Positions 12,769-32,796 of a stretch of 42,559 nucleotides of DNA are shown here, one piece after another. Under the pieces are notes generated by a model. It saw nothing but the letters and a program-made list of their open reading frames with translations. It was not told the DNA's origin and searched no databases. The position numbers and the translations under genes are program-made. Numbering within the stretch: the stretch's first letter is position 1; each line of letters opens with the position of its first letter. The stretch lies in the sequence record SRR20825019_475; one strand, 5' to 3'.

Positions 12769-12769
12769 T

Positions 12770-14697: not shown

Positions 14698-14787
14698 GGG
14701 TGCACCTGTGCGAACGGCAGCCTCTGCCGGGCCGGCTCGAAGCTGCCTATGTCAGGCGAGTCGAGCAAGTACGGTGGAAAACGGCGG

Positions 14788-15564: not shown

Positions 15565-15695
15565 GGCGGTCCCGTTCATTTTTCGGCAACCATATGGCGG
15601 CGGGGTTACCGGAAGGTTTTCCGTGCCGCAGATGTGATCGACGACAGCCGAAACCCTCCTTACCATCCGGTCGTACGAGCCGAGAGGAAAAGCCG

Positions 15696-16004
15696 TTGCG
15701 AACCGCGCCGATCGCCGACCGTGTATTGTGCGATATGTCGGAGATATTCCGTCTGCTGGGTGACCCCACAAGGCTCGGGATATTGCTGTGCTGCCTCGAG
15801 GAAGCGAAGGCCGTTGGCCGGATCGCGGACGAGCTCTCGCTCCAGCAGACCTCGGTGAGCCGCCACCTGCGTCTGTTGCGCGGTGCCGGGCTCGTCGCTC
15901 GCGAGCGGGACGGCAAGCGGGTATTCTACAGGGTCGGGGACGACCATGTCAGAAGCATTCTGGCAAATGTCGTCGCCCATCTCGACGAAGAAGCCGACGT
16001 TTGA
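15696..16004 (+). CDS. ArsR/SmtB-family metalloregulator, alpha5 (SmtB/CzrA) type
   Basis: GAGAGG RBS then TTG. FRLLGDPTRL, SVSRHLRLLR, RDGKRVFY; exact D-x-H-x10-H-x2-E site (DDH...HLDE). Confidence 0.9.
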   Translation: MRTAPIADRVLCDMSEIFRLLGDPTRLGILLCCLEEAKAVGRIADELSLQQTSVSRHLRLLRGAGLVARERDGKRVFYRVGDDHVRSILANVVAHLDEEADV

Positions 16005-16036
16005 TTGCGGGCGGGAGGGACCCGCGCGAGGCTTCC

Positions 16037-16954
16037 TCACTCCTTACGAACGAGGTCCGTGTCGTGTTCGATGCCGTCAGCGGCCTCGATCTCGATGGTC
16101 GCGTGGTCGATGTCGAAATCGTCGTGCAATTCCCGCTTCAGCCGTTCTTTCAGCGCGGTCGCCGCGGATAGTTCGGGCTCATCGACGATCAGGTGGACTT
16201 GCAGAGCGGTCCGATCCTCGCTGATTTGCCAGACGTGGAGGTGATGCACGTCCGATACGCCGGCAGTGCCTTGCAGCCTTGCGACCAGTTCGTCGTGGTG
16301 GAAACCTTTCGGCGCGCTGTCCATCAGCACCGCGATCGCCTCGCGGATTTCCCGCGACGCATGGATGAGGACGTAGACCGCGATCATGGCGGTGACGACG
16401 GGGTCGATCCATGAGACAGCCGGGCCCCAGACCATGATCGCGACGCCGCTGGCTATCACCGCCACCGTGGCTAGGGCATCGGCGATCATGTGCAGGAAGG
16501 TGCTGCGCACGTTGAGGCTGCCGAGATCCTTGCGCAACACCCAGGCGGCGGCGACGTCCTCGACGAAGGCGATGGCTCCCACGATCAATACCGTCGTGGC
16601 CACGACTTCTGTCGGCTCGAACAGGCGGGAACCCGCTTCGTAGAGCAGGTAGAGGCCGATCATGATGAGCGCAGTGAGGTTGATGAGCGCTCCGACCGTC
16701 TCGGCCCGGGCATAGCCGAAGGTCCGCTTTTCGTTGGCGGCGCGCCTGGAGATGCGCCAGGCGATATAGGAGACCAGCACCGCTCCGGCATCGGAGAGAT
16801 TGTGCGCTGCGTCGGCGATAAGCGCCAGCGAACCGGAGAAAACGCCGCCGACGACTTCGGCGGCGGTAATGCCCAGGTTCAGCGCCAGGGCGATCAGCAG
16901 ACGGCGGCCACGATCGGGCGATCGAGCCGCCGTTTCTCTTTGCATGTGAGCCAT
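16037..16954 (-). CDS. czcD: Cation diffusion facilitator (CzcD/ZitB-like)
   Basis: SLALIADAAHNLSD and FLHMIAD (HD-HD site), TFGYARAE, VHHLHVW, HATIEIE. Confidence 0.93.
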   Translation of the reverse strand: MAHMQRETAARSPDRGRRLLIALALNLGITAAEVVGGVFSGSLALIADAAHNLSDAGAVLVSYIAWRISRRAANEKRTFGYARAETVGALINLTALIMIGLYLLYEAGSRLFEPTEVVATTVLIVGAIAFVEDVAAAWVLRKDLGSLNVRSTFLHMIADALATVAVIASGVAIMVWGPAVSWIDPVVTAMIAVYVLIHASREIREAIAVLMDSAPKGFHHDELVARLQGTAGVSDVHHLHVWQISEDRTALQVHLIVDEPELSAATALKERLKRELHDDFDIDHATIEIEAADGIEHDTDLVRKE

Positions 16955-18124: not shown

Positions 18125-18328
18125 GACAAAATTGTCGCAGTCTGCTCGATAGCAATCCTGATTTCGGGAAAAAGTGGTGTGGCCGAAAACCATTTGTCGT
18201 CAGCGCAACCCTCAACTTCACGCCTACACTGATCGCGTCAACGGACCATCTTTCAACTGCTTAATCCCGGTTAGCGTAGGTCCACCGCTAGGTTGACCAA
18301 GCTCCCTCGACATTGCGCAAGAGATCCG

Positions 18329-18353
18329 TTATGCAAATGACTTGCAATTGCAT
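18329..18353 (+). promoter_or_regulatory. Putative Mur/Fur-type box upstream of mntH
   Basis: TTATGCAAATGACTTGCAATTGCAT contains the palindrome TGCAA-N5-TTGCA, resembling rhizobial Mur sites, immediately before mntH. Confidence 0.6.
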
Positions 18354-18365
18354 ATGTGGATTGTC

Positions 18366-19709
18366 ATGAAGGGTCCTTTGTCACCTTACAGTTCGGGCTG
18401 GCGCAGCGGCGGCGGCGATCCGTCATTGGTGGACGTTCATCGCAGTGTGCCGGTGGCTGCAAAGGGATCGGTCTGGCGCCGGGCTACTGCTTTCTTCGGT
18501 CCCGGTTATCTCGTGGCAGTGGGGTATATGGACCCGGGCAATTGGGCGACATCGCTGGCCGGGGGGTCACGCTTCGGCTACACGTTACTTGTCGTGGCCT
18601 TGGTCTCCAACGTAATGGCCATCATCCTGCAATCGCTCTGTGCCCGCTTGGCTATCGGTTCGGGCCGTGACTTGGCTAGAGCCTGCCGTGACGCTTTTCC
18701 GCTCCCGGTGGGCTTCGTGCTCTGGATCATGGCGGAGATCGCTATTGTAGCCACAGACATCGCCGAGGTGATCGGTACGGCAATTGGGCTCAATCTTTTG
18801 TTCGGTATCCCGCTTGAGCTCGGCGTAGTTATTACTGCGCTCGATGTGTTCCTTATTCTCTATCTGCAAAGGTTGGGATTCCGCTGGGTCGAGGCACTGA
18901 TAATTGCTCTCCTCGCCGTCATTGCGGTCTGCTTCGTGATACAGATCGCTCTCGCCGACCCAAATTGGAGCGATGTCATTCGCGGTTTTGCGCCGACCAC
19001 AGAAATCCTAACAAATCCGGACATGCTCTATCTGGCCCTGGGCATTCTCGGGGCCACGGTGATGCCCCATAATCTGTATCTGCACTCGGCCATCGTGCAA
19101 ACCCGCGATTACGGAGATAGCCTCCCCGAGAAACGCGAAGCACTGAAATTCGCCACGATCGATTCCACTGTGGCGTTGATGTTTGCACTGCTGGTCAACG
19201 CGTCCATCCTCATCCTAGCAGCGGCCACCTTTCACACGACCGGGCGCACGGAAGTTGCCGAAATTGGAGAGGCGCATGCATTGCTCGCGCCCATGCTCGG
19301 CGCCGCGATTGCGCCTACGCTGTTCGCCGTGGCGCTCCTATGCTCAGGGATCAACTCCACGGTGACGGCGACGCTGGCTGGGCAGATCGTCATGGAAGGG
19401 TTCTTGCGGTTTCGAATGGCACCATGGCTAAGAAGGCTGGTCACTCGCATCTTGGCGATCGCTCCCGCCGCTTTGGTCACCATATGGTATGGCGAGAGCG
19501 GAACAGCCCAGTTGCTTATCCTCAGCCAAGTTGTGCTCAGCATGCAGCTTTCATTTGCGGTGATCCCGCTCGTCCTCTTCACTGCTGATCGACGGAAGAT
19601 GGGAAGCTTAGTTGCACCGTTTTGGCTGATAGTGGTTTCTGGCCTCATCGCCATCACTATTGCAGGTCTTAATTTGAAGCTTTTGTGGGATTTCAGCAGA
19701 GGAGGCTAA
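18366..19709 (+). CDS. mntH: Nramp-family divalent metal (Mn2+) transporter
   Basis: [36 protein letters not shown]. Start trimmed to ATG 18366. Confidence 0.95.
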
Positions 19710-19778
19710 CATGGAAAGAAAGTTCTTGAGTTGACCCGAAGTTTGGCCAGCCGTTTACGTCGCAGTGCCACCCCTTGA

Positions 19779-20024
19779 TCCGAGATCGTCTAGCGCCTCA
19801 CTGGGAGCAATGGCCATTTGAAGGGCGTTGTTGAGATTGAGGCAGGACGACCCTGTCTCGATGTTGCCCGGCAACTTTTTCCATTGGAGAAGGGCGTGGT
19901 GCAGGCAAAAAAGACACCGATCCACGACCGCCTGGATCACTGTCTTGAGGACCTGGACGGGCCATTGAGCCAGGAGCCTCAGCGCCCGATAGACGAGTCC
20001 AAGGAAATAGTGAAGTATCTTTGA
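19779..20024 (+). pseudogene. Decayed CsoR/RcnR-family (NreA-like) metal-sensing repressor
   Basis: SEIV*RLTGSNGHLKGVVEIEAGRPCLDVARQL...IHDRLDHCLE...EIVKYL. In-frame TAG at 19791 (and TGA at 19776), no start codon, and expected His positions altered. Confidence 0.75.
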
Positions 20025-20089
20025 TATTCACGGTTCCCGGCTGACCGTGGCTGGGGTCTAAAATACGTTCTGCTTACGGCTGTGACCTG

Positions 20090-20460
20090 ATTGCCGGTTG
20101 CGGCGAGAAGCTCGGCAAAAGCTGCGGCGGTTTGATAGCAAAGCGAGGAGTGCGGCCCGCGTCGCAACGAGATCCTCCACCCGTTCGGCCATGGCGCTGC
20201 AAGTATAGTCGAGGCCGAAAGGACAGGCTCTCACTCAAGAGCCCGTCCCGAATCCCCCCTAAAGCTCTCGACGTACCGTTCTGCATCGGCTTGCTCGGCG
20301 CGATGTAGCTTTATTCGACGCCATAGTCCTCCCATCGAGCCAGGTTTGCGTTCGAGCTCTTCTTCCCGGTAGAGCCGATGGATGCGGTTGATCCCTGACA
20401 TCTCGCCCTCACGCCGCAGCAGGATGAGCAGTCAACGATAGCCGAACCGGCAGCTGGCTC
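20090..20460 (-). mobile_element. IS3-family transposase (OrfB) relic with stops, frameshifts and an internal deletion
   Basis: Minus-strand fragments RFGYR*LLILLRREGEMSGINRIHRLYREE, DYGVE*SYIAPSKPMQNG/VESF, IRDGLLSESL and PHSSLCYQTAAAFA match the IS3 HTH_21 and rve_3 regions. Confidence 0.8.
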
Positions 20461-20464
20461 GGTT

Positions 20465-21568
20465 CTAAATCTCGAAGTTCCGCAACCTTTCCCCGGCAGA
20501 CAGAAAAGGTCGCGGATCAATGGCACCGTTCTGGTCACGCACCTCGAAGTGCAGATGTGGGCCTGTCGACCGCCCCGTGGAGCCCACCAAGGCAATCTGC
20601 ATGTGCGCCTCGACCTCGTCACCCTCTTCTACCGTAGCTTGAGACAGATGCGGATAACGGGATATCAGGCCGGAAGGGTGCATGATCTCGACGACCCTAC
20701 CGTAGTCTCCCTTCCAGCCGACAAACGTCACAATTCCCCGTCCCGCACTTCGCACCGGTGTACCGGTCGGCGCGGGAAAATCCATACCGGAATGAAAGGC
20801 GCTCCGGCCAGTAAAAGGGTCCTGCCGCGTACCGAAGCCCGAGCTGATCCGTGACGTTTCGAGAGGATGATGGATAGGCACGTCATCCATCGCACGAAGC
20901 GCGTCATGAAAGCGATCCAACGCCTCAATGGTCTGGCCGATATCGATAAAGCCAGCGTCGGCGCGTTCAACAGCAGGAAAAAAAGGCCCGCCTCGAGCGA
21001 GGTCGACTATCCCCGGCGCATATCCGACACCCCCAAGCTCGGCGATGATCGTGTGGGTCGAGCGATTCACGGCGTCGGACAGGAACGCTACTGCCGCGAT
21101 CAGCTCACGCTCCATAATCCGAAGTTCACTGTCTACTACATTAAGTTCGTCGACATTGTTAATTATTCTCTGTCGCCCAGCGGGCTGCGTGTCGAGCGAC
21201 ACAATGCCCAAATCTGCAATTGTTTCCGCGACCGCCATCACTGGACGAAGCTGCTCTCCGATCTGCTCCTGCAAATCTGAAATTTCTTGAATTCTAGTGG
21301 CGGAGCTGCCGGCAGTTAAGATTTCGCGGGACCGTAATCGCTCGACAGCGGAATTAAGTTGGCTGATCCGATGGCCATAGGCGGCCGATATCTCTGTTCG
21401 CGTATCCCACAATTCCACTATGCCTGTGCTACGAAGCAACATGGATACGGTCATGCTGTTCGTGACCAGCAGACTACCAAGCACCACCCAGTGAACAAGA
21501 CGAATCTGCATAACTGCTGGGTGTCCGATGGACCGATCTAAGCTACGACTTCGAGTATCGCTAGCCAT
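20465..21568 (-). CDS. Second M23 metallo-endopeptidase (TM, coiled coil, LytM domain)
   Basis: SSGFGTRQDPF, FHSGMDF, GSTGRSTGPHLHFEV. Visibly lower GC than its neighbours. Confidence 0.88.
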   Translation of the reverse strand: MASDTRSRSLDRSIGHPAVMQIRLVHWVVLGSLLVTNSMTVSMLLRSTGIVELWDTRTEISAAYGHRISQLNSAVERLRSREILTAGSSATRIQEISDLQEQIGEQLRPVMAVAETIADLGIVSLDTQPAGRQRIINNVDELNVVDSELRIMERELIAAVAFLSDAVNRSTHTIIAELGGVGYAPGIVDLARGGPFFPAVERADAGFIDIGQTIEALDRFHDALRAMDDVPIHHPLETSRISSGFGTRQDPFTGRSAFHSGMDFPAPTGTPVRSAGRGIVTFVGWKGDYGRVVEIMHPSGLISRYPHLSQATVEEGDEVEAHMQIALVGSTGRSTGPHLHFEVRDQNGAIDPRPFLSAGERLRNFEI

Positions 21569-21628
21569 GGTTAACAAACCAGAAATCGTGCCCGCACGGG
21601 CCGCTCACCGGGTGCTCAGGCCGGAGCG

Positions 21629-21922
21629 CTAGTACTCGTCCGGATCGTTCTTTTGGGCGTACTCCACCCCGGGCACGCCTCCGTCCAAACCCAGGAAGAC
21701 GATACCCTCCGCTTCGAGAGCGTCCCGTACAGCCTGAATGCTCGCCGGCGTGACGCGGTCGTCGCCGGTTTCGATCGCCGCTACTGTGCGTCGAGCGATG
21801 CCGCTTCGTTCGGCCAGTATCTGCTGGGACCAATCCAGCAAAGCCCGGGCGGCTCTTATCTGCGCGGCATTGGGTTGGGCAAGGGTCAAGCTCGAGGTCC
21901 GTCGAATCGATTCCAAGGGCAT
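21629..21922 (-). CDS. XRE-family HTH transcriptional regulator
   Basis: AQIRAARALLDWSQQILAERSGIARRTVAAIETG...ALEAEGIVF. Start trimmed to MPLESIR. Confidence 0.88.
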   Translation of the reverse strand: MPLESIRRTSSLTLAQPNAAQIRAARALLDWSQQILAERSGIARRTVAAIETGDDRVTPASIQAVRDALEAEGIVFLGLDGGVPGVEYAQKNDPDEY

Positions 21923-21989
21923 CTTACCGCCACCATACGGCTCGTGTTGCACAAAATGTGCAAATGGACTTGACAAAGCCTGGCTGTTC

Positions 21990-22004
21990 CTATAGTGACT
22001 AGAG
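21990..22004 (+). promoter_or_regulatory. Third CadR/PbrR-type dyad, overlapping a TTGACA...TATAGT promoter candidate
   Basis: CTATAGTGACTAGAG versus CTATAGTAGCTAGAG at the ATPase promoter (13/15, both arms identical). TTGACA at 21970-21975. Confidence 0.55.
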
Positions 22005-22130
22005 TTATGGAAGCTGCGTGCGTTCACAGAAGGTGAACGCCGATCAAGACCTTCCCTCTCTCGTGCTCTTGCGCACGACCTCCCAGTTTCAGCGTCAGAG
22101 GACTTGTCCTAAAAGACAAGGAGAAGGTTC

Positions 22131-22658
22131 ATGCATCATCCTGTTGCCGTCATGGCTCGTGAAGAAGCCGATCGCTCCGAAGCGCGTTCACGGCAGTTGC
22201 GCCGTCGCCTCTCCGGTCAGCTGTTCAACATCCTCGGGGAATCGAAAGAGGTCGTGGTGGTCGGTAGCGATCCGCTCCTCGTCCACTACACCCGGGCGGA
22301 GGGCTTGGATCCGGAATCGTTGGCCGCCTGCCAGATCCTGATCGACGGAGCGCCGGTCACGATCGTAGGTGTTCCCAATCGCATCTGGTACGGCTCCGTC
22401 ATGCGGGACGTCCATCGCGTCAAGCGGAACATGTTGGCCTCCGGCAGGTCTTGCATTCTCGTGCCCCAGCGCGCGCTCGAAGGAATTGCGAGGCTGCACT
22501 CCCGCCCGATCGCGGAGCGTGATCCGCAAATCCTCCTGCAGGCGATACGTACGGCTCCGCTCCTGCGCGATATCGATGCCTGCCGGTACGGGCGAGGCCA
22601 TGACCCGGTCGGCTGCCTCGCCGTCGAACTCGCGACCGGTACGCCCTGCCTGGGTTGA
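22131..22658 (+). CDS. Hypothetical protein, paralog of the next ORF (degenerate TnsA-like fold suspected)
   Basis: AGGAGAAGG RBS. Gapless 56-aa alignment to 22845-23456 (GLxP..L...V.VP.R......M......K......GR...LVP). Confidence 0.7.
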   Translation: MHHPVAVMAREEADRSEARSRQLRRRLSGQLFNILGESKEVVVVGSDPLLVHYTRAEGLDPESLAACQILIDGAPVTIVGVPNRIWYGSVMRDVHRVKRNMLASGRSCILVPQRALEGIARLHSRPIAERDPQILLQAIRTAPLLRDIDACRYGRGHDPVGCLAVELATGTPCLG

Positions 22659-22844
22659 GACCAAGCCTCATCACCGCGATACGCCACTATGTCCTTTCGC
22701 TGACCTATACCCAGCGAGGTGGCGGAGCTTTGGCCTGACCTCGGCCACAAGCACCTGACGCCTACCGAATTCCGCCACCTTCGATCGGCGGCTCGCCGGT
22801 CCGATCAAGTTTAACCCAATTCCGACGAACCAAGGAGATGTCCC

Positions 22845-23456
22845 ATGCTGGAGGCCAATTCCGCTCGCGTGCAATCCGAACCCTGCAAATGGCGTTCGCA
22901 ACAGGAAAGGGAGGGGAAATCCCTGCGCCGTGCCGCCGAGGCGCTCGTCATGGCGTATCCCGGCATCCGTCGCTTGCCGGATGATCACGGCATCGAGGAA
23001 ACCGCAGCCGAACTGGGGCTCGAACCTCACGAACTCGTGGTGGTGCCTGTGGCTGTCGGCCATCGCGCGGTGGACCTCGTGGTGGTGCCCACCCGGACGA
23101 GGCGTCGGGGTGGAATGCTCCTCTTCTTCGAATTGAAAGCCTCTGCGGAGACGATCGGTCGTACCGTGGTCCTGGTACCGGAGAGCTTCGTCCGTCGCGA
23201 GCCCCGCTTGACCAACGCCTTCGTCATCGCAGAGGCGGCGCAGGCCGCCGTGGGCGCGACCGATCGTATGAGGATGCTTGTTCATCTCATCGAGAACGGC
23301 GGCAGCGCGCCCCTGCTCGACCTAGCGGGCCTGGTCAGCAGCGCCGATCCGGTGGCGGGAGTGCTGGGACTGGTCGTGGAGGGCGGTCTGCACATGGACC
23401 TCGACGCCAGGCTTATGCCTTCCAATCAGGTCCACCTGGTGGAGCCGGGCCTATGA
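22845..23456 (+). CDS. Hypothetical protein resembling TnsA without the PD-(D/E)xK catalytic motif
   Basis: AAGGAG RBS. C-terminal half (VPESFVRREPRLTNA...GLHMDLDARLMPSNQV) parallels the TnsA C-terminus in this window (LLCIDIAGRLAPESMV). Confidence 0.7.
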   Translation: MLEANSARVQSEPCKWRSQQEREGKSLRRAAEALVMAYPGIRRLPDDHGIEETAAELGLEPHELVVVPVAVGHRAVDLVVVPTRTRRRGGMLLFFELKASAETIGRTVVLVPESFVRREPRLTNAFVIAEAAQAAVGATDRMRMLVHLIENGGSAPLLDLAGLVSSADPVAGVLGLVVEGGLHMDLDARLMPSNQVHLVEPGL

Positions 23457-23794
23457 GCGGTGACAACGGCGACCCCGTCGACTTCCTGGGGGCCGACCCT
23501 TTGGCGACCGCCGAGCTGCTGGAGGACCTGGCCGCTGACCTTCGCGGCCTTGCCGCCGGCTCTCTTCCCTCGCCCGGGCGCCTGCGGGAAGCACCGCATC
23601 TCCGGCGCTGGGGCTTCGCGCCGAGGAGCGCGCTCTGCCTGGCAGGCACGGCATACGGCCACCCGCGGATCGTCGCCGGCAGGGAATGCGTGACGTCCGA
23701 GATCTTCGCGATCGCCCGGGACCGCAGTTGGGCAAGGACCCTATCGCGCTACTACCAATTGGGTCCTCCGAAGGTCTTCGGCCTGGACGAGTGA
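23453..23794 (+). CDS. DUF6634-like protein
   Basis: CLAGTAYGHPRI...VTSEIFAI...WARTLSRYYQLG pattern, family recalled from memory. ATGA-coupled to the previous ORF. Confidence 0.7.
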   Translation: MSGDNGDPVDFLGADPLATAELLEDLAADLRGLAAGSLPSPGRLREAPHLRRWGFAPRSALCLAGTAYGHPRIVAGRECVTSEIFAIARDRSWARTLSRYYQLGPPKVFGLDE

Positions 23795-23809
23795 GCAGAG
23801 GTGCCAGGC

Positions 23810-25798
23810 ATGTTCGACCACGACGAAGACGATTTCCCTTTTCAGCACGGAGACGACGAGATGACGATCGGCAGGAAGGATGAGGGACTGACGGTCCGGC
23901 AGGCGCTGGCCGAACTGGCGGTGAAAGGTGCGATCTCGACGGATCTGCGCAAGTCCTTGATCAAGGGGGAACTGCGCTCGATCGTGCTGGTCGTGCCGTC
24001 CGCCGAGTGGACCAACATGGCCGGAGGAGCGGTGGAGGATATTCACGACCGCATCTACGCGTTCTGCAAGGCTTCGGGGAAGAAAGAAGCGGAGGACGCC
24101 AGTGCCATCAACAAGGCCCTTGCTGCCGGCAGGACGGTCGTGGCCGTGACGCCGTCCGTGCGGACGTTGCCGGCGATCTTCAAGACGGTCGCATCGGAGA
24201 CCATCGAGGTCCCGCCGCCAAGCGCAGCTCTGGTGGCCCAATTGGTCCGCAGGTTCTCGGTGGGTCGCTTGCCATCCTCCTTTTCGAGGCTCGACACCTC
24301 GGTCCTCGACTTCGACGAGCTGTGCGGGCTTGTGGAGAAGGGCGCCGACGCCGCGGTGACGGCGGAACGCATCGCCAATGCCATCTCGGCGAAAACGCGC
24401 ACGGCTCGTGTCGGCGAAACCCTGCCGGATCTGGAGGTGGCGGTCGAATTCGGCGATGCGCGGCTATGGGCGATCGATCTCAAGCAGGATCTGTCCGATA
24501 TCAAAGCCGGGATCATCGGCTGGTCGGAGGTGGACAAGGGCTGCGTCCTCCATGGACCGCCCGGGACGGGCAAGACCACATATGCCCGTGCGCTGGGCCA
24601 GTATCTCGGCATTCCCGTGGTTATCGGGAGCGTGTCGGAGCTGTTCGCGTCCAGCGCGGGATATCTGGATTCGGTGATCAAGGCCCAGCGAGCCCTTTTC
24701 GAGCGTGCGATGCAGCAGGCGCCGGCCGTCCTGTTCCTCGATGAGATCGACCAGATGCCGGATCTCGACCAGATCTCCCAGCGCGGCAAGGACTGGTGGA
24801 GCCCGGTGGTCGCCGACTTCCTTCAGTTGCTCGACAGTGCCGTGTCCGACAGGGATGGTCTGATCGTCATCGGCGCAACGAACCGCGTCGAGGCCCTGGC
24901 ACCGGCTTGCCTGCGTCCCGGGCGGCTGGAGCGCTCGATCTATCTGGGACCGCCCGACGAAACAGGAGCAGCGAGGGTCCTGCGTCATCACCTCGGGCCT
25001 TCTCTCGCCGATGCCGATCTCTCTCCCATGGCGAGCATCTGCTCGGCTCGCAGGATGACAGGGGCCGACATCATGGACCTCGTGAGATCGGCCAAGCGGC
25101 TGGCAAGGCGCGAGAAGCGCGAGATGTCGTTGTCCGATCTGACTGCGCGGCTCGTGCCGCCGTACGAATTGACCGAGGCCCAACGAAGTCGCGTGGCTCT
25201 GCACGAGGCAGGACATGCGGCCATCGCGGCCCTGCATTTTCCCGATCGGCTGGTGTCCGTCAGCATCGACCCCTTTGGCGGCGGCATCGCCTCGGGTGGT
25301 CACGTGCGAGTCGAAATCCCCGATGACCTTCTCGAGACGAAGTCCGACCTCGATCGGCGGGTGGAGATGCTGCTCGCGGGCCGAGCGGCCGAGATCGCCT
25401 TTCTAGGCGAGGCATCATCGGGATCGGGTGGTTCGGAGACCAGTGATCTCGGGCTCGCCATGCGAATGCTCGCGGCGGCGCATCTGTCGTTCGGCACTGC
25501 GGATGCCCCGCGTTGGCGATGCGAGCCCGAAAGGGCGATGGACATGCTGCGACTGGACCCTAGGACAATGTCCCAGGTCGAAACGGAGCTTGCGAAGCTG
25601 GCGGCGTCGGCCATCGACCTGGTGCGCTCCCGCCGAAGCGAGATCGAGACCTTGGCCGGCGAGCTCCTGTCCCGCTCTACGTTGTCGGCTGCGGAAGTGC
25701 TGACGATAGTGCGCAAGGGCGAATCGGCGTCCACGAACCTCGTATCGCGAAGGTTCGAATCGAACGAATCGACGCTGCCTTGGACCGAATCGGCGTGA
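23810..25798 (+). CDS. Soluble FtsH-like AAA+ ATPase / M41 zinc protease
   Basis: Walker A GPPGTGKT, Walker B LFLDE, SRH GATN...LRPGRLE, HEAGH, LAGRAAE, GGSETSD. No TM segment. Confidence 0.9.
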   Translation: MFDHDEDDFPFQHGDDEMTIGRKDEGLTVRQALAELAVKGAISTDLRKSLIKGELRSIVLVVPSAEWTNMAGGAVEDIHDRIYAFCKASGKKEAEDASAINKALAAGRTVVAVTPSVRTLPAIFKTVASETIEVPPPSAALVAQLVRRFSVGRLPSSFSRLDTSVLDFDELCGLVEKGADAAVTAERIANAISAKTRTARVGETLPDLEVAVEFGDARLWAIDLKQDLSDIKAGIIGWSEVDKGCVLHGPPGTGKTTYARALGQYLGIPVVIGSVSELFASSAGYLDSVIKAQRALFERAMQQAPAVLFLDEIDQMPDLDQISQRGKDWWSPVVADFLQLLDSAVSDRDGLIVIGATNRVEALAPACLRPGRLERSIYLGPPDETGAARVLRHHLGPSLADADLSPMASICSARRMTGADIMDLVRSAKRLARREKREMSLSDLTARLVPPYELTEAQRSRVALHEAGHAAIAALHFPDRLVSVSIDPFGGGIASGGHVRVEIPDDLLETKSDLDRRVEMLLAGRAAEIAFLGEASSGSGGSETSDLGLAMRMLAAAHLSFGTADAPRWRCEPERAMDMLRLDPRTMSQVETELAKLAASAIDLVRSRRSEIETLAGELLSRSTLSAAEVLTIVRKGESASTNLVSRRFESNESTLPWTESA

Positions 25799-26070
25799 CG
25801 TCTCAGCCCTTTGGGCGTGTGCCATCTCGCCGCTTTTCATTCCCGATCGGGAAAGTTTCTCGTGGCGACGAGCACGCAGAGGCCTTCCGAAGGAGGTGCA
25901 GTGCTGATTCTTTTTTGCCCTGGAAGAACGAGGGCGAAAATGACATCTGCGACCGTCGTGAACGGCGTCACGACATGCGATCGCGGGCAGTAATTTCCGG
26001 ACCGGGATCGCCTATTGACACAGCCGTGACGCAAACCCGAGGCTCTTAAACCATTACATTAAGAAACGCC

Positions 26071-26150
26071 CACAAGCCGAGTCATGACTCCGAAATCCGC
26101 CTCCGAATCAAACGGAGGGGGCTTGCGCACCGGTCGATTTGAGTCATGAT
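26071..26150. promoter_or_regulatory. GAGTCATGA sites upstream of tnsA resembling the transposon-end motif
   Basis: Palindrome GAGTCATGACTC at 26079-26090 and GAGTCATGAT at 26141-26150; compare GACTCATGATT at the element end. Confidence 0.45.
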
Positions 26151-26480
26151 CGTGAGGCTTCAACGTTGCCGACGTTTTCCAAGATACCGGTCGTTGGCGA
26201 AGGAAAGGTGAACGCAAAAACGGAAACGCCCCGGATTGCTCCAGGGCGTTAGAATACCGAGACCCGGCACGTGTTTGGAAAACACCAGGTCAATCCCACC
26301 GCCGAAAGGCGACAAATCGCTTGGAAAGGCCTGGCAGCCGATCCTAGCAAACGGAACGACCAAGGCCGTTCCCGCACACATAGGCCCGTCCCACAAAGAC
26401 AGGAACCACACACATGCACGGCGAGTATCCGCTGGGCGCCTTTTCGCGTCAAGCACTTTCCGGGCATGGAAGGAGAAACC

Positions 26481-27329
26481 ATGCCTAAGAGTATCAAGCC
26501 GCCGCGGCGCGGCGAACTGCTGTCTGATCAGCTTCTGCTCGAAGACCATCAGATCTTCGCCCGCATCTTCGTCGCCGAGGACGGCGGTCCTATCCGCACC
26601 CTGATCACCGGGCGCGAGCACCATGCCACGGGACGCTTCGTCTCGGTCAAGGCCGGGCACCGTGCGTTGCCTTGGGAATCGCTGCGCGGCGAACTGTCCG
26701 CGCTCGAACTGATGGAGGCGGCGCCTCCGGTCCATAGGATGATGGCGCAGCCGCACCGCCTTGAAATGATCATCGAGGGTGTTCCCGCGCCATTGGTGTT
26801 CTTCCCCGATCTGCGCCTGACCGTTGACGCACGCTTTGCGTCCGCACTGGCCGGTGGCGTACCGTTTCTGCTCGCCTGCGCCGAATGGCGTCCCGACGCG
26901 TCCACGGCGGGCGACACCCGCGAGTTGATCGTGGAGGTGAAGACCGCGAACGACCCGCGCAACGCCGATCCGGTCTACCAGTCAAAGCTCGCCTTGGCCG
27001 AGGAGGTCTACGGCAGGATTGGTTGGCAGTTCTTCCAATTCGTCGATCCCACCGGGCCCGGCTACTCCCGCATCGCCCATGCGGTGCGCGAGATCGTGCT
27101 CGACCACGACGTCATCGTCTCGCCCCATGAGGTGCATCTCGCCCAGAAGGCGCTGAGCGACGGCCCGACGACGCTGGATGCGGTCTTGGATGCTCTCGGC
27201 GGCAACGTGGCGGCCATCCAGAAGGCCTGCGCGCTTCATGTCCGCCGCCTGCTCTGCATCGACATCGCCGGACGGCTGGCGCCGGAGTCCATGGTGTTCC
27301 CTATGGGTTCGATCGGAGGCGCGGCATGA
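26481..27329 (+). CDS. tnsA: TnsA-like endonuclease of a Tn7-like transposon
   Basis: AGGAG RBS. TGRFVSVK, WESLRGE, AQP, FFPD, IVEVK (PD-(D/E)xK), and a C-terminal winged-helix-like region. Confidence 0.88.
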   Translation: MPKSIKPPRRGELLSDQLLLEDHQIFARIFVAEDGGPIRTLITGREHHATGRFVSVKAGHRALPWESLRGELSALELMEAAPPVHRMMAQPHRLEMIIEGVPAPLVFFPDLRLTVDARFASALAGGVPFLLACAEWRPDASTAGDTRELIVEVKTANDPRNADPVYQSKLALAEEVYGRIGWQFFQFVDPTGPGYSRIAHAVREIVLDHDVIVSPHEVHLAQKALSDGPTTLDAVLDALGGNVAAIQKACALHVRRLLCIDIAGRLAPESMVFPMGSIGGAA

Positions 27330-27544
27330 GTCAGGTCTTCCAATCCCCCCGCGCCTTTCCGGTGCACTTCGTGCTGGTCGACGATGATGGGTTGCCTTGG
27401 CTGGGCACGCTGGTGGCCGTGACGGTGGAAGGTTACGCGTTCCATATCGACGAGATCGATTCCGAGATCGTGTTGTCCGAGGAAACCCTCGAGGACATGT
27501 TCGACCGGGATGCCGCCGTCGAGATCCAGGGGGCGCCGTCATGA
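27326..27544 (+). CDS. 72-aa acidic protein resembling the N-terminal domain of the adjacent TnsB
   Basis: GGAGG RBS, ATGA overlaps with both tnsA and tnsB, and by-eye alignment to TnsB residues about 15-68. Confidence 0.8.
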   Translation: MSQVFQSPRAFPVHFVLVDDDGLPWLGTLVAVTVEGYAFHIDEIDSEIVLSEETLEDMFDRDAAVEIQGAPS

Positions 27545-29859
27545 GGCCGTCCTGGATCACCATCGACGTCGAGGCCGGCGAGACCTATTGGCTCACGCTG
27601 CCCGACCGCACGTTCCTCGCCACGTTCGAGAAGGTCACGCTCCAGCACCAACTGCGCTTTTCGGACGAGCAGCTGGACATGCCCGTCGATATCGCTCCGC
27701 ACCTCTTCGAGAAGATGCGGAGCGACGGGCGCGCCGTTCGCATTCCCAAGGGCAGCATCCCGAGCCGGAAAAAATCCGCCTTCGAGCTCGGCGACGTCCA
27801 TCCCTCGACCCTTCTCGATCCCGAGGAACGCGGCATCGGCGACAAGGAGCGCAAAGAACGGCTGGCCCAGTGGCAGAAGTTCGAGCGCGCGCGGACGCTG
27901 GCGTGGTGCGCATCGGAATACGACGCCACTCCTCACCTGGGCCGCGGGCACAACTGCATCGACGACCACTTCAAATCCAAGGACGTCAAGAAACGCGCCT
28001 GGGAGTTAGGCTTCGTGTGGCGTCCCGACGCGGCCACGATCCTCCGCGCCATCGATGCCTGCGGCGTGCCTGGGTCGCGCCCCGTCTCGGCGTTCTTCGA
28101 CAAGCGGGGCAAGCACGACCGGAGCAAGCGCTATCCGGAAGTTTTGCTGACGTGGGCCAAGGAAAGCATCGACGCTTACTGGGCATCGATCACCGAGCGC
28201 TACTGCGACGTGCGCGAGAGCTTCTACAAGAAGATCGACGAGGAGAACGAGGAGCGCGTCAAGCAGGGCCTCGAGAAATTGCCCCGAATTTCGCCCGAGA
28301 CCTTCCGCAAGTGGGTTGACGAAGAGGAGTCATGGTGGACCTGGTCGACCCGCTACGGCGAGAAGGCGGCCAACGCCCGCTACAAGGGTCGGGGCGTCCC
28401 GATGGAGGCGTCCCGCCCCCTCGAACTGGTGCTCATTGACCATACCCGTCTCGACGTGTGGGCCGTGGTCGAGGACCAATATGGTCGCCTCGTCATGACC
28501 GAACGTCCATGGCTCACCCTGGCCATTGATGTCTATAGCCGAATGATTCTCGGCGCGGTCCTGAGCTTCGAGCCGCCGAGCGTCTACAGCGCCATGCTCT
28601 GCCTGCGGCAGATCGTTCGAGCCAAGGACTTCCTCATCGAGAAGTACGGCCACCATAAGGGGGCGACGGACGGCTGGGGCAAGCCTACGACCATCGTCAT
28701 GGACAATGCCTGGGAGTTCTCCGGCATCTCCATGCAGTCGGTATGCGAGGCGGCGGGCATCCACGTCGTCTGGGCGCCGGTCGGCACGCCGACGTTCAAG
28801 GCGATCGTCGAGCGCTTCTTCCGCACCCTCAACGAAATGGTGTGGCACCGCCTCGGCAGCGGCATCCCGTTCAAGCCGCAGGTCATGCAGGAACTGGGCC
28901 TCGATCCCAGGGCGAAGGCGCTGTTCCGGATCGACTACCTCACCGCCAGGATGTGGGACGGCATCGTCAACATCTATCACGTCGAGCCTCATTCCGACCT
29001 AAACATGGCGCCCGCTGAACGCTGGTCAATGGGCGTCCAGGCCAAGACCCGTCCTACGATGGACGATGTGGGTGCCTTGGACAAGATGCTCGGCAATGTC
29101 TCGCGTTGCGTCCTGAGCGCCGAGGGCGTCTCCGTGAATGGCCAGCGCTTCCACGAGCCGGCGACCACGACGGCCTTGCTGGAGAACCTGCTGAAGTACG
29201 GCGCCAAGCGTTCGCGCCGCAAGGGCTTCGGCTCCAGCGGCACGGTGGCTGTGATCGCCAACTGGGATCGCGTGGATGCCAGCCATGTCCATGTCTGGGA
29301 TTTCTCCAACAATACGTCGGTGCGCCTGCCCAACGTCGACAAGCACGTGCACGGGGTCCCCGGTGTCGACGGAGCACCGGCCCAGGGATTGAGCTGGGCT
29401 GTGGTGGACGCGATCAAGGCGTTCGCCGCCGAACGCAACATGGCTTTCCACAGCCCCCAGGAAAAGGCTGCGGCCCGGCACGCCTATTACCACGAAATGC
29501 CGGAGAAGGTTGCGGCCATGCCGTTCAACGCCGCCCGGCACTACGCCGCCGAGATCGATCGTAGCCCCAGTCTGGTCGATGGCGACACCGTGATCCAGCA
29601 TGCCGTGCCGGCGACGCCGAAGGGTGCCGCCGCCGAGACACCGCGTGAATTCTCGGCGGCACACCGAACCGGCGAATGGGCACCGCCCAAGGCGCCGTCG
29701 CGGGGGCGGAAGAGCCGGTCTTCGGGATCGAAGGGCCGATCCGCTCCGCCGTCCGCGTCGCCGCCGAAGCCGCCCGAAACGCATCCCGCCCCTGCCGACC
29801 TATCCAACCACATCCTGAATTCCGCTGCTGCTCTAGATGCGCTCGCGGACGACCTTTGA
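27541..29859 (+). CDS. tnsB: TnsB-like DDE transposase
   Basis: Start trimmed to ATG 27541. LIDHT, RPWLTLAIDVYSR, VMDNA, KAIVERFFRTL, YHVEPHS; Pro/Ser-rich C-terminal tail. Confidence 0.92.
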   Translation: MRPSWITIDVEAGETYWLTLPDRTFLATFEKVTLQHQLRFSDEQLDMPVDIAPHLFEKMRSDGRAVRIPKGSIPSRKKSAFELGDVHPSTLLDPEERGIGDKERKERLAQWQKFERARTLAWCASEYDATPHLGRGHNCIDDHFKSKDVKKRAWELGFVWRPDAATILRAIDACGVPGSRPVSAFFDKRGKHDRSKRYPEVLLTWAKESIDAYWASITERYCDVRESFYKKIDEENEERVKQGLEKLPRISPETFRKWVDEEESWWTWSTRYGEKAANARYKGRGVPMEASRPLELVLIDHTRLDVWAVVEDQYGRLVMTERPWLTLAIDVYSRMILGAVLSFEPPSVYSAMLCLRQIVRAKDFLIEKYGHHKGATDGWGKPTTIVMDNAWEFSGISMQSVCEAAGIHVVWAPVGTPTFKAIVERFFRTLNEMVWHRLGSGIPFKPQVMQELGLDPRAKALFRIDYLTARMWDGIVNIYHVEPHSDLNMAPAERWSMGVQAKTRPTMDDVGALDKMLGNVSRCVLSAEGVSVNGQRFHEPATTTALLENLLKYGAKRSRRKGFGSSGTVAVIANWDRVDASHVHVWDFSNNTSVRLPNVDKHVHGVPGVDGAPAQGLSWAVVDAIKAFAAERNMAFHSPQEKAAARHAYYHEMPEKVAAMPFNAARHYAAEIDRSPSLVDGDTVIQHAVPATPKGAAAETPREFSAAHRTGEWAPPKAPSRGRKSRSSGSKGRSAPPSASPPKPPETHPAPADLSNHILNSAAALDALADDL

Positions 29860-29866
29860 GGTAACC

Positions 29867-30865
29867 ATGACCAAGACGCTTACCAACTCCGAGATCCTCG
29901 CCGTGTTCCGCAAGCTCAGGGTCAAGCACCCCCGTCTCGACATCGTCACGGAGGTTTGCGACGACCTTCGCGCCACGATCACCGACGATGAACCCAAGCA
30001 GTTCGGCACCCTGTTCGCACCCAGCCACGTCGGTAAGTCCACCGCGGTCAAGAACTACCAGGAAAAAGTCGCAGTGCCGGAAGCGATTTCCCGAGGGCTG
30101 GTTCCAGCCGATCTGCCCCTCGATGAACAGGTCCGCCTCCAAAAGCTCGTCGTGCATGTCACGCTGGAAGGCGGCGCGACGCCTCGTTCCCTGTGCGCCG
30201 ACATCCTGGCTGCCCTCGGCGATCCCCGCTCCGCCCGGGGATCGAAAAACCTGATGCTCCGCCGTGTGTATGACCTCCTGTCCACTCTCGGCGTGGAACT
30301 GCTTGTTATCGACGAGATCCAGCACTTGGCGGTCTCCAAGCACCGCATGTCTGAGGATGCGGACCTGCGCTCGATCGAGCGCTCCAGGACCAGCGAAGTG
30401 ACTGACACGTTGAAGGCCATGCTCATCCGCGGAGTGGTGCCTATGCTGTTCGTCGGCATCGAGGAGGCACGGCCCTACCTTCTCGACGACATCCAGCTTG
30501 CGCTGCGCTGCCATGAGGAGATCGACTTCGGTGAATTGTCCTGGGAGGATACGCAGGAGCGTCAGGTCTTCCAGGATTTCGTCGGACGCCTCGGCATTCA
30601 TCTGGCCAAGGAGGGGTTGTTCCCGCAAAGGGCAGATTTCCTGAACGCGGATATCCCGGCGGCCTTGCACGAGGCTTCGCTCGGTCGTCTGGGCATCGCC
30701 TGCCGCATCGTCGCCAAGGCCTGCATGCATGCTGCCAAGGCCAAGGCGGATACTGTGACGCGCGAGCACCTGTCCAAGGCGGTCGATACCTTCGCGATCC
30801 CGCGCGGCATCGTGAAGACCAACCCCTTCAAGCGCGGCGGCGACGCCCGACTGGTGGCCGCATGA
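29867..30865 (+). CDS. tnsC: TnsC/TniB AAA+ ATPase
   Basis: GAGG RBS. Walker A APSHVGKS, Walker B LLVIDEIQH, QLALR, C-terminal NPF. Confidence 0.9.
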   Translation: MTKTLTNSEILAVFRKLRVKHPRLDIVTEVCDDLRATITDDEPKQFGTLFAPSHVGKSTAVKNYQEKVAVPEAISRGLVPADLPLDEQVRLQKLVVHVTLEGGATPRSLCADILAALGDPRSARGSKNLMLRRVYDLLSTLGVELLVIDEIQHLAVSKHRMSEDADLRSIERSRTSEVTDTLKAMLIRGVVPMLFVGIEEARPYLLDDIQLALRCHEEIDFGELSWEDTQERQVFQDFVGRLGIHLAKEGLFPQRADFLNADIPAALHEASLGRLGIACRIVAKACMHAAKAKADTVTREHLSKAVDTFAIPRGIVKTNPFKRGGDARLVAA

Positions 30866-32796
30866 CGCTTCCTGTCTCCGTCCTGCCCCATGGCGACGAG
30901 CATCTCCCGGGCCTGGTCGTCCGCGCGGGCAATCTCATGGGCTACGATCTCACCAGCGATGTCCTCATCCCTCTGGGATACAAGTCCCGCGCTGAATCCA
31001 TCGCGTCCGCGCCCGGTTTGAAGTTTCCCCTTGCGGATCATCTGGGATGCCGCGTCGAGGATATTTCGCCGCTCTTCCTCGATCAGGCCGGGCGTTCCGG
31101 CTGGTTGCGGTTCTTCGGTGCCGAGATTCGCGCGATCCACCGCGAGGTGACCGTGCGCCGCATCGCGCCCGGGACGCTCGCGACATGCGGATACCACAAG
31201 GCGGCCTGGCAGATCCGTGCCTTCGGCTTCGATCCGGCAACGGGCGAGCGCCTGATCTCGGAGTGTCCGGTCTGCGGGACGACGTTGGGCTGGGTGCGGG
31301 TCCGCGATCTGGCGTTCTGCGACCGCTGCGATCGGGTGGACGACCATGGGTTCGTTCGCTCCAAGGTCGATCTGCGGGATTGGCCACAGGAGAAGGTGGA
31401 GGTGGAGGACATGGAGGCCTTGCGCTTCGTGACCTCGCTCGTCGATCCCGATCCTGCCGTCAGGGCAGCTTACGCGCCGGCGCTGCACCCCGATATCGAA
31501 ACGGATCGCGGATCCCTGTTCGAGTTCGCGATCTCGATCGCGAGCGCCATGACGCAGGACCCGAAACGCTCGGTCACGTCGGTGGCCAAGCCCGGGAGCC
31601 GCGAGATGTTCGATCGCATCGAACCCGATGTCCTCGCCAAGGCGGGCCGCGTGGTCCTGTCTTGGCCCGATGGGTTTCACGACCTCTGCTCGCAAGCCCG
31701 TGATTCCGCGAGCGAACGCAGCGGCCATTACGGCGTGAAGAAGGAGATCGGATCGCTCTATGCCCTGACCACGGACCGCGCGCTCCCTCCCGAACTGCGT
31801 GCCGCTGTGCGGAAGTCCGTCGAGGACGACATGGCCATGACCGCGGTCAGTCTGCCCACCGTGCGCAAGGGCAGCTATCGCAATCGCTCCGATCTCCTGA
31901 CGGCCTACGAGGCCGCCAAGGAATTCGGCATCCGCCCGAAGCTGTTCAAGATTCTGGCCGGGCATCCGGAGGTGCGCGTCATCCGCAATGCGGGATCGAA
32001 GAACTCCCCTATGCTGTTCGAACGCGCACAGATCGCGATGATCGCCGCACAACGCGCGGACATGGAGGCCGCCAGTTCGGCTGCCGTCCGCCTCGGCCTA
32101 CCGACCGGGGCGATGGCCGAGCTGGCGGAGGCCGGACTAGTGGATACTGTTGGAGGTCCGGTCCTGATGCTCGCGGTGGGCAAGGAATACTACACGCGTT
32201 CTAGCGTCAACCGGCTGGTGGACCGCCTGGAATCGAAAGTGTTGCCCGCGGTACCGCCATCCACCTATATCCGCTTGACCAAGGCGGTCTACAGGTTGCC
32301 GCCCGGGCCGAAACCATGGGCGGGCATCATCGCCAGGGTGATCGACGGGACCATCCCAGTGCACCGTATCGACGGCAGGCTGACCGGCACCATGACATCG
32401 TTGGCGGCGCCGGATTTCGAAACCGTCGTAGCAGCAGTCGGGCGGCATGCCGGTTCTGATGAAGCCCGTGACGGTCTGCTCACCCACATAGAGGCGTCGG
32501 TCCTACTTGGCGTCACCGAGCCAATGGTTGGTCGCTTGGTCCTTCGACGGCTGCTTCCCGTCAAGGCCAAAGGCCAGGTTTCGATTGCCCGGGCCGACGT
32601 GTTCGCCGTGGCGCGAAAGTGGATGTTCACGAATGAAGCCTCGCGGCGCCTCGGCGTTCCGAACCGCCTGGTGCGCACCACCCTCGCCAAGTTCGGAGTC
32701 CACCCGAAGCACGAACTTCGTGAGCGGCAGCAGCTCGTCTTCGCGCGTGAAGAAGTCGAGCGCGTGCTCGAGACCGTGGTGAGCACCGCCGCCTAG
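30862..32796 (+). CDS. tniQ: TniQ/TnsD-like target selector with tandem C-terminal HTH modules
   Basis: N-terminal LPVSVLPHGDEHLPGLVVR, AWQ...LISECPVC...FCDRC. Repeated EAxxxLG-type HTH motifs in the C-terminal half. ATGA-coupled to tnsC. Confidence 0.85.
   Translation: MTLPVSVLPHGDEHLPGLVVRAGNLMGYDLTSDVLIPLGYKSRAESIASAPGLKFPLADHLGCRVEDISPLFLDQAGRSGWLRFFGAEIRAIHREVTVRRIAPGTLATCGYHKAAWQIRAFGFDPATGERLISECPVCGTTLGWVRVRDLAFCDRCDRVDDHGFVRSKVDLRDWPQEKVEVEDMEALRFVTSLVDPDPAVRAAYAPALHPDIETDRGSLFEFAISIASAMTQDPKRSVTSVAKPGSREMFDRIEPDVLAKAGRVVLSWPDGFHDLCSQARDSASERSGHYGVKKEIGSLYALTTDRALPPELRAAVRKSVEDDMAMTAVSLPTVRKGSYRNRSDLLTAYEAAKEFGIRPKLFKILAGHPEVRVIRNAGSKNSPMLFERAQIAMIAAQRADMEAASSAAVRLGLPTGAMAELAEAGLVDTVGGPVLMLAVGKEYYTRSSVNRLVDRLESKVLPAVPPSTYIRLTKAVYRLPPGPKPWAGIIARVIDGTIPVHRIDGRLTGTMTSLAAPDFETVVAAVGRHAGSDEARDGLLTHIEASVLLGVTEPMVGRLVLRRLLPVKAKGQVSIARADVFAVARKWMFTNEASRRLGVPNRLVRTTLAKFGVHPKHELRERQQLVFAREEVERVLETVVSTAA

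Follow-up and report, generated by a model that had tools for sequence, protein, structure and literature searches.

An accessory operon of large Tn7-like transposons encodes inactivated TnsA homologs and a soluble FtsH-like protease

Directly upstream of the transposition genes of a Tn7-like element in sequence record SRR20825019_475 (a stretch of 42,559 nucleotides that was analyzed as a whole and is called the window here), we found an operon in which relatives of the TnsA nuclease are encoded beside an FtsH-like protease. It consists of four co-oriented open reading frames (ORFs), namely orfA, orfB, a DUF6634 gene, and the protease gene, which together with a divergent XRE-type (HTH_3) regulator gene occupy 21.6–25.8 kb and are referred to below as the module. 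Located 3' of the protease gene are tnsA, tnsB (rve), tnsC (TniB/AAA_22), and a tniQ-like gene encoding 644 amino acids (aa). We conclude that orfA, orfB, the DUF6634 gene, and the protease gene, with the XRE gene, form an accessory operon of a clade of large Tn7-like transposons in Devosia and other Hyphomicrobiales. The protease is a soluble, two-tier machine of the FtsH type, and orfA and orfB are shortened, catalytically dead homologs of TnsA. An initial annotation, made from the sequence alone, had already described the four ORFs, and all of them are present where it placed them; the order it gave, with orfA and orfB co-oriented with a DUF6634-like gene and the protease gene, divergent from the XRE gene and followed by tnsA, is likewise the order in the window. 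The features of the locus are listed here, with the evidence for each in brackets.

21629–22027, minus strand: XRE-type helix-turn-helix (HTH) regulator (Pfam HTH_3, E 2.8e-8)
22131–22658, plus strand: orfA, 175 aa, C-terminally shortened, dead TnsA-like protein (orfB-family hidden Markov model, E 9e-23)
22845–23456, plus strand: orfB, 203 aa, TnsA homolog without catalytic residues (hhalign against TnsA, E 5.8e-15)
23453–23794, plus strand: DUF6634 protein, 113 aa (Pfam PF20339, E 2.6e-6)
23801–25798, plus strand: soluble FtsH-like protease, 665 aa (Pfam AAA, 3.4e-27; Peptidase_M41, 8.4e-14)
26040–26095, no strand assigned: palindrome region, candidate operator or promoter (MAFFT alignment of the window and five loci)
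26215–26452, minus strand: candidate small RNA gene (predicted promoter and terminator, conserved in the loci)
26481–27329, plus strand: tnsA, 282 aa (conserved ribosome-binding site and ATG; aligned with the TnsA proteins of loci L003 and L077)
27397–29859, plus strand: tnsB, rve/DDE transposase, 820 aa (Pfam rve, 31.5 bits)
29837–30865, plus strand: tnsC, TniB-type AAA+ protein, 342 aa (AAA_22, 9.8e-19; TniB, 8.5e-14)
30862–32796, plus strand: tniQ/tnsD-like target selector, 644 aa, with a C-terminal HTH_17 domain (tblastn to the proteins of loci L003, L077, and L082)
32904–33062, plus strand: transposon end, five direct repeats and terminus (repeat search; break in identity with D. sediminis)

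The two small ORFs upstream of the DUF6634 gene are related to each other. Residues 58–113 of both proteins align without gaps, with 16 identities over the 56 positions, exactly as the initial annotation had reported, and each protein has a single DPV motif further on (at residue 158 in orfA and residue 168 in orfB), which belongs to a motif conserved throughout the orfB family, H-x-D-P-x-x-A-V-L. Only one of 300 shuffled versions of orfB reached 16 identities in this comparison, and BLASTP aligned the two proteins with 19/64 identities (E 1e-4). This pairwise signal is borderline when taken alone, and it is the profile evidence that settles the paralogy: a hidden Markov model (HMM) built from 76 orfB-family proteins matched orfA at E 9e-23 and the orfA of D. 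sediminis, the nearest genome, at 9.8e-20. Close relatives form five homolog clusters for orfA and 17 for orfB, the latter all Devosia-like where named. A search with the orfB profile among 1.84 billion representatives recovered 218 representative clusters of ~200-aa proteins (E ≤ 1e-3). No Pfam or NCBIfam model matched orfA or orfB, and none of the 76 orfB-family members was matched by the Pfam TnsA models at E ≤ 0.01; one of the 76 matches HTH_20.

Relationship to TnsA was detected by comparing profiles. Aligned by hhalign to ten TnsA proteins from these Tn7-like loci, two of which (those of L003 and L077) exceed the Pfam Tn7_TnsA-like_N cut-off, the orfB family matched with a probability of 98.4% and E 5.8e-15 over 176 columns that span the nuclease core and the C-terminal domain, and an HMM made from the TnsA proteins alone matched orfB at 6e-7. 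Together with the match of orfA to the orfB-family HMM, these scores agree with the earlier suggestion that both ORFs are TnsA-derived pseudo-nucleases. Residues ~121–203 of orfB align to the TnsA C-domain, in keeping with the resemblance first seen between the C-terminal half of orfB and the TnsA C-terminus, while orfA retains only part of this winged-helix domain, DPV included. At the catalytic positions, orfB has V-V-P under the E-V-K of TnsA and non-acidic residues under its PD; the aspartate D77 is not conserved across an alignment of orfB and 17 close homologs (18 sequences), and in the pairwise alignment T-I-V-G-V-P-N of orfA lies opposite D-L-V-V-V-P-T of orfB. The statement that neither ORF has a PD...ExK motif therefore holds, and because V-x-P stands for E-x-K, orfA and orfB are shortened, dead TnsA homologs that have lost the active site.

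Homology between orfB and TnsA (Tn7; PDB 1T0F and 9BW1; Pfam Tn7_TnsA-like_N) thus extends over the nuclease-fold core and the winged-helix domain, and after the core the orfB-family segment 'LVPE...R.PRL.NA' is placed over 'TE...P...NA' of TnsA. Both ORFs nevertheless differ from TnsA in their length (~175–203 aa compared with ~270–280 aa), in the change of E-x-K to V-x-P, in the missing PD aspartate, in matching no Pfam TnsA model, and in adjoining a protease gene while a true TnsA is encoded besides. A structural comparison with TnsA had been recommended in the initial annotation. An AlphaFold2 model of orfB (pLDDT, the predicted local distance difference test, 79) has a restriction-endonuclease-like core and a C-terminal winged helix. 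VIA-align related it to Vsr (Z 7.0), VRR_NUC (6.0), the TnsA N-domain (6.0; 1t0f_A, 95 residues aligned, root-mean-square deviation 3.6), and the TnsA C-domain (5.2; 9bw1_M residues 178–260), with many winged-helix chains matching residues 137–203 at Z 5–6.7, all at Z values below 8, which are common between unrelated folds. Foldseek against the PDB returned nothing at E ≤ 0.001, TnsA (1t0f_B) appearing merely at E 0.12. The modeled structure of orfB accordingly agrees with homology to TnsA but is no proof of it, and the sequence profile is the real evidence.

The 665-aa protease is composed of a degenerate AAA+ domain, D1 (residues ~22–245), a second AAA+ domain, D2 (~245–450), and an M41 zinc peptidase domain (~457–634), with the motifs GPPGTGKT at residue 252, DEID at 314, and HEAGH at 468. 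D2 is a classic-clade AAA+ domain with Walker A, Walker B, and the second region of homology (SRH) with its arginine fingers, and it aligns to VAT/Cdc48 and FtsH chains. The model of D1 (residues 22–245, pLDDT 86) is a second AAA+-like domain lacking a P-loop, for which Foldseek returned Rpt subunits, FtsHi, RFC, and p97 (best E 7e-4). No transmembrane helix was predicted in the protein, the highest 19-residue Kyte-Doolittle mean being 1.37, and its scores were 150.5 bits on the FtsH equivalog model TIGR01241 (cut-off 600) and 105 on PRK10733 (cut-off 1008). Because an AAA+-like D1 precedes D2 and M41 and there is no membrane helix, we assign the protein as a soluble two-tier FtsH-type machine in which D1 is dead and D2 and the M41 zinc site are intact. 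This agrees with its first description as an AAA+/HEAGH protease without transmembrane segments, both Pfam domains and the motifs having been found. Since Walker A, Walker B, the SRH region, and HEAGH are all present, the protease is apparently active.

FtsH has an N-terminal membrane anchor of two transmembrane helices and a periplasmic domain. Like other members of the FtsH family (bacterial FtsH, mitochondrial i-AAA, and plastid Ycf2-FtsHi), the protease of the module has a classic-clade AAA+ domain followed by M41 with HEAGH; it lacks the transmembrane and periplasmic N-terminus, however, and the P-loop-free D1 in its place results in a Cdc48-like two-tier layout. A word-based search with the N-domain found five proteins only, and a D1 profile matched 10 of 401 genomes across the class at E ≤ 1e-5, of which D. 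sediminis (genome G001) and one other (G973) alone were matched over most of the profile, the remaining matches being partial and in open frames of ~800–990 aa. Three D1-type proteases are encoded in the D. sediminis genome. The start of the fourth component, the DUF6634 gene, overlaps the stop of orfB (ATGA). Its product scores 27.8 bits against a Pfam gathering cut-off of 27, a marginal match; the assignment as DUF6634-like, made before from the sequence alone, is backed by an Atlas score of 0.92 to three DUF6634 clusters and by an alignment with 20 homologs.

Conservation of the gene order ties the operon physically to tnsABC-tniQ. All eight Devosia loci, found in one-genome-per-species contigs of six named Devosia and two metagenome-assembled genomes, have the genes in the order XRE, orfA, orfB, DUF6634, FtsH-like, tnsA, tnsB, tnsC, and tniQ-like, with the XRE gene divergent and the others co-oriented, and four distant loci in two other families (L076, L077, L078, and L080) have an orfB-family gene and an FtsH-like gene followed by tnsA or tnsB, with FtsH-like and TnsB proteins each ~30% identical to those of the window. 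Among the Devosia loci there are two types of tns genes, with TnsB ~45% (L002 and L004) or ~29% (L003 and L005–L008) identical to that of the window, and the module is ~50% identical to the window's in all of these. Loci L002 and L006 are 95% identical in DNA through the module up to the tnsA ATG and carry unrelated tns cassettes beyond it. Because their identity ends at this ATG while the module is kept, the tns cassette must have been swapped by recombination behind a constant module. In the loci of the second type, the conserved ribosome-binding site and ATG open an extra ORF of ~150 aa ahead of tnsA (L003 13598–14050, L005 13572–14027, L006 13608–14048, and L007 and L008 13537–13992), which has no Pfam match; its sequence (LLVDCCRID...RPYL.AVMDT) is, by eye, reminiscent of the first aspartate region of DDE transposases.

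In the window, the start codon of tnsA is the ATG at 26481, which follows a conserved ribosome-binding site (AGGAGAA), and not the GTG at 26271. Its 282-aa product has the intact E...PD...E-V-K signature and scores only 13 bits on Pfam Tn7_TnsA-like_N, a model on which the L003 and L077 proteins exceed the cut-off; the 31.5 bits of tnsB on Pfam rve are just below the cut-off of 32.6. No Pfam TniQ match was found for the tniQ-like protein of the window, which is homologous by tblastn to those of L003, L077, and L082, with TniQ scores of 17.4, 19.8, and 45.9 bits, respectively (that of L082 passing). Downstream of this gene, positions 32904–33062 contain five direct repeats of ~21 nt (TCGACTCAGAATT-type) and a terminus ...GGTCCTGACA, ending ...CCTGACA at 33062. 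The window is 95–98% identical to D. sediminis over positions 1–33062, apart from 18140–21612; the identity, 98% at this point, ends exactly at 33062, and beyond it D. sediminis matches the flank only in scattered stretches at 73–80%. Because high identity reaches 33062 and the flank is dissimilar, two Devosia lineages must have exchanged a block of at least 33 kb whose boundary is the Tn7-type end.

The window does not extend to the far end of its own copy of the element, and the far end was located in the D. sediminis copy (G001, the record of locus L001). There, an inverted end with two repeats was found ~48 kb away (L014 17255–17415; G001:C8, ~564.25–564.41 kb), 14 bp from the 3' end of tRNA-Met(CAT); read by eye, 19 of the last 27 nt match and the second site is equally spaced. 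No clean 5-bp target-site duplication was seen by eye around the D. sediminis copy (flanks GAAAT and AATTG), which could be due to rearrangement since insertion or to misplaced termini. Searches by k-mer for end repeats in inverted orientation detected none from the protease gene to tnsA in nine loci, nor was the end motif of the second tns type present in inverted form within 20 kb upstream. From the lack of end repeats before tnsA and the inverted end ~48 kb away, the module is internal to the element, with the tns operon reading outward at one end and all cargo located upstream of tnsA. The element has the hallmarks of a Tn7-like transposon: an intact TnsA site, an rve TnsB, and an AAA+ TnsC in the window, and inverted, repeat-bearing ends. 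Its tRNA-adjacent end is the one farther from the tns genes, opposite to the way in which Tn7 lies at glmS.

Homologs of the module were also detected more widely. The 401 genomes sampled from the phylum included 7 with DUF6634, frequently in multiple copies. DUF6634 commonly neighbors this kind of protease: a homologous soluble protease was adjacent in 7 of 13 further DUF6634 loci, only one of these seven (L030) having a TnsA-like gene. The orfB profile matched 20 of 401 genomes of the order; 14 of the 18 loci fetched contain an FtsH-like protease, adjoined by an orfB-family gene in 13, and half of the 14 have Tns matches within their 20-kb stretch. On a maximum-likelihood tree of 29 proteases, the label of adjacency to tns genes requires two changes and hence falls in at least two places. 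One locus in D. sediminis (L075, G001:C11:226000–245999) is a second, tns-free locus in this genome, where two FtsH-like proteases flank an orfB-family gene (14712–15359), XRE-like and HTH-M78 genes are near, and a third DUF6634 copy lies ~12 kb off. At locus L086, two divergent genes at 8449–9873 (minus strand) and 10259–11416 (plus strand) each encode an orfB-like domain that continues C-terminally into a fused DUF4357-like segment (2.4e-8, below the cut-off), and each fusion gene adjoins its own FtsH-like protease gene.

An XRE gene stands beside the module in the eight Devosia loci and in L073–L078 and L084, and was not detected in several FtsH-like loci. In the window it probably starts at the ATG near 21922 (~97 aa), since homologs in the other loci match only from residue ~51 onward; a promoter-like plus-strand sequence, TTGACA-15 nt-TATAGT, seen by eye and not called by the promoter scan, is located within the long version of the ORF. 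The spacer between the XRE gene and orfA (21947–22120) contains the palindromes TTGCACA-AAA-TGTGCAA, GTTCAC-N5-GTGAAC, and CTTGTC-N6-GACAAG, the last of them over the orfA ribosome-binding site, all three of which are possible operators. Further palindromes in the spacer between the protease gene and tnsA (CTTAA...TTAAG and GAGTC-N-GACTC) are kept in the window and five loci whatever the tns type, and mark a candidate operator or promoter region at 26040–26095. No operator shared by the two spacers was found.

The spacer between the protease gene and tnsA also contains sequence blocks conserved in all loci, which reach the tnsA ribosome-binding site and ATG. Two of these blocks are the -35 and -10 boxes of a sigma-70-like minus-strand promoter, TTGACG-17-GATACT (26452–26424), and a third is a minus-strand intrinsic terminator (stem 26250–26225, then a T run); between promoter and terminator is an array of short hairpins in which Alifold, run on six sequences, found compensatory changes in 14 of 66 predicted pairs. 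We regard this as a candidate minus-strand small RNA of ~200–300 nt, convergent with the operon and located upstream of tnsA. Counterparts were located at L002 13248–13545, L003 13244–13547, and elsewhere, that of the window being ~80 nt shorter than the others, and many hairpins in the Devosia loci L002–L008 have GNRA-like loops. Rfam matched the candidate with BjrC68 alone, at 22 bits and thus below the gathering score of 39. A genome-wide repetitive extragenic palindromic (REP) element was rejected as an explanation of the hairpin array, as an 18-nt motif from it has three matches in the L002 genome, all at the locus. One contig of a marine metatranscriptome is identical to window positions 22020–22668, and short contigs of an activated-sludge transcriptome fall on orfA, the protease 3' end, the spacer, and tnsA; DNA carry-over is possible in such RNA libraries, and these contigs were not counted as proof of transcription.

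As to function, our tentative preference is for a role in transposition, with the operon providing the transposon with an accessory unfoldase-protease that is guided by TnsA-derived decoys or adaptors. Host ClpX acts on the MuA transposition complex. In a comparable manner, the dead TnsA proteins would keep the docking surfaces of TnsA for the transposase, TnsC, or transposon DNA, and as adaptors or decoys orfA and orfB would present one of the components of the transposition complex, or a regulator of that complex, to the unfoldase-protease of the module. By remodeling or degrading what is delivered, the protease would either limit transposition or, like ClpX, clear a very stable post-transposition complex. 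The XRE protein would control the operon, and the candidate small RNA, which converges on the operon from the spacer before tnsA, may act as a gate for transcription that continues into the tns genes. We favor a link to transposition because of the TnsA ancestry of two of the components, the fixed position before tnsA across TnsB proteins that are ~30% identical, and the precedent of ClpX. In one study, ClpX raised genomic integration by a Tn7-like CRISPR-associated transposon (CAST) ~100-fold and was proposed by the authors to disassemble the post-transposition complex (PMC10055298). The action of ClpX on MuA and CAST, that is, of an AAA+ unfoldase on a DDE transposition complex, would serve by analogy as the functional model here; ClpX, however, is a host protein of another AAA+ clade that acted without its peptidase, whereas the machine of the module would be encoded by the element and have its own protease and TnsA-derived partners. 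More doubtful is the full version of this proposal, in which the element disassembles or destroys its own transposition complex without host ClpX, duplicated, inactivated copies of TnsA serve as the substrate-recognition adaptors of the protease, and the pair has since spread to other mobile elements.

Several observations weigh against a tie to transposition. Within the 20-kb stretches, 7 of the 14 FtsH-like loci found via orfB (L073, L075, and L083–L087) have no Tns match, and the same is true of 6 of the 7 found via DUF6634. In 5 of these 7, no orfB-family gene is present beside the protease. Among the loci without Tns matches, L073 adjoins a tyrosine integrase and L075 an HTH-M78 gene. The exchange of cassettes, moreover, means that the module is not closely tied in its evolution to any single set of Tns proteins. 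Of the initial annotation's claim of a dedicated transposon-associated system, the conserved operon beside tns genes is supported (in the eight Devosia and four distant loci), and the loci that are free of tns genes speak against strict dedication.

The same tns-free loci, with their integrase and HTH-M78 neighbors, would be expected if the module were self-contained defense, abortive-infection, or addiction cargo of mobile elements with no part in transposition, an explanation that we consider possible and place below the transposition role. The dead nuclease with its winged helix would then sense foreign DNA or protein, the protease would be the effector, and the DUF6634 protein an inhibitor or adaptor. 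Tn7-like cargo is rich in defense systems, and retention of the module when the tns cassette is exchanged, the presence of several copies per genome (as with the three D1-type proteases of D. sediminis), and the fusion of an orfB-like domain to DUF4357 in L086 all fit this explanation, as does the match of the AAA+ core to models of the defense ATPase IetA (1.8e-20). That match is confined, however, to the generic AAA core (residues 247–454); orfA, orfB, and the DUF6634 protein matched none of the 5027 models of PADLOC-DB 2.0, in which no system was matched and the protease hit the AAA cores of IetA and TRIP13 only. The IetAS system, which is directed against plasmids and phages and consists of the AAA+ ATPase IetA and the protease IetS, resembles the module in pairing an FtsH-related ATPase with a protease (NCBIfam IteA, 3.3e-19; 69 bits against a curated cut-off of 510), but in the module the protease is a fused M41 domain and the partner genes are others. 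Cargo of this kind would also leave two things to be accounted for, namely that the position before tnsA and the conserved spacer were kept between lineages with ~30%-identical TnsB, and that orfA and orfB descend from the transposon's own TnsA.

Less probable still, and in our opinion unlikely, is a switch of the ImmR/ImmA kind, in which the XRE protein represses both the operon and the tns genes until a signal passing via the dead TnsA proteins makes the protease destroy the XRE protein or another regulator and so turns transposition on. ImmA cleaves ImmR in ICEBs1, and E. coli FtsH degrades lambda CII and Xis. Such switches combine genes for an XRE-family repressor and a zinc metalloprotease on a mobile element, as here, and the frequent divergent XRE gene and the conserved palindromes in both spacers of the module are in line with this. 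The module differs from them, however, in its ATP-dependent M41 enzyme in place of M78 (COG2856), a domain not found by the Pfam scan in any gene of the operon, and in its additional TnsA-like and DUF6634 genes. An M41 protease with two AAA+ rings rather than a small M78 enzyme would be heavy machinery for a single repressor, and the lack of an operator common to both spacers and of a detectable XRE gene in several FtsH-like loci also argues against a switch. Last in our ranking, after the transposition role, the defense or addiction cargo, and the switch, is the highly improbable case that the module is no part of the transposon at all and is a conserved attachment site behind which Tn7-like elements insert, as with glmS. 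At glmS, the target gene is followed by the tnsA side of Tn7 (Tn7R) in the same orientation. The co-oriented order of module and tnsA fits this, as do the two unrelated tns cassettes behind the same module. We rejected it on the grounds that no inverted end repeats of either type precede tnsA in the window and eight loci or lie in the 20 kb upstream, that L002 and L006 cease to be identical precisely at the tnsA ATG, so that no room is left for an end, that the high-identity block shared with D. sediminis passes through the module, and that the second end lies beside a tRNA gene ~48 kb off.

Literature searches yielded no description of the module or of a counterpart to it, and no paper on DUF6634, although supplementary tables of Tn7-like cargo surveys might list such genes. 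Should the transposition role be correct, this would to our knowledge be the first mobile element with an unfoldase-protease of its own that inactivated copies of the element's nuclease subunit direct to a target, and accessory factors might be drawn from it. Programmable DNA-insertion tools have been developed from Tn7-like elements, and a proposed bottleneck in these tools is the removal of the post-transposition complex, which is very stable (PMC10055298). If the module instead serves defense or addiction, it would be an undescribed system with a soluble two-tier FtsH-type protease at its core. In both cases, the locus provides the first context for DUF6634, a TnsA ancestry for an unnamed family of ~218 representative clusters, and a Tn7-like layout in which an outward-reading tns operon occupies one end and the cargo lies upstream of tnsA. 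We therefore regard the module as a candidate addition to Tn7-like biology and as a candidate protease-based system.

The remaining cargo of the element includes genes for a CDF transporter, DsbA, DsbB, MntH, and an M23 peptidase. Compared with the D. sediminis copy (L001 6984–8773), window positions 18140–21612 have mntH and the M23 peptidase gene in place of ~1.8 kb of unrelated sequence, which marks an apparent spot of cargo replacement just left of the XRE gene. Metal-related cargo (the CDF transporter gene and others) at window positions 4628–16828 is found reversed in L002–L008 (positions 1–8564), where it directly adjoins the XRE gene, and this indicates a probable inversion or rearrangement within the element. 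Just outside the transposon end, window positions 33063–34000 have a GC content of 0.50 compared with ~0.63, and encode a 215-aa ORF without a Pfam match, after which an RND efflux operon follows.

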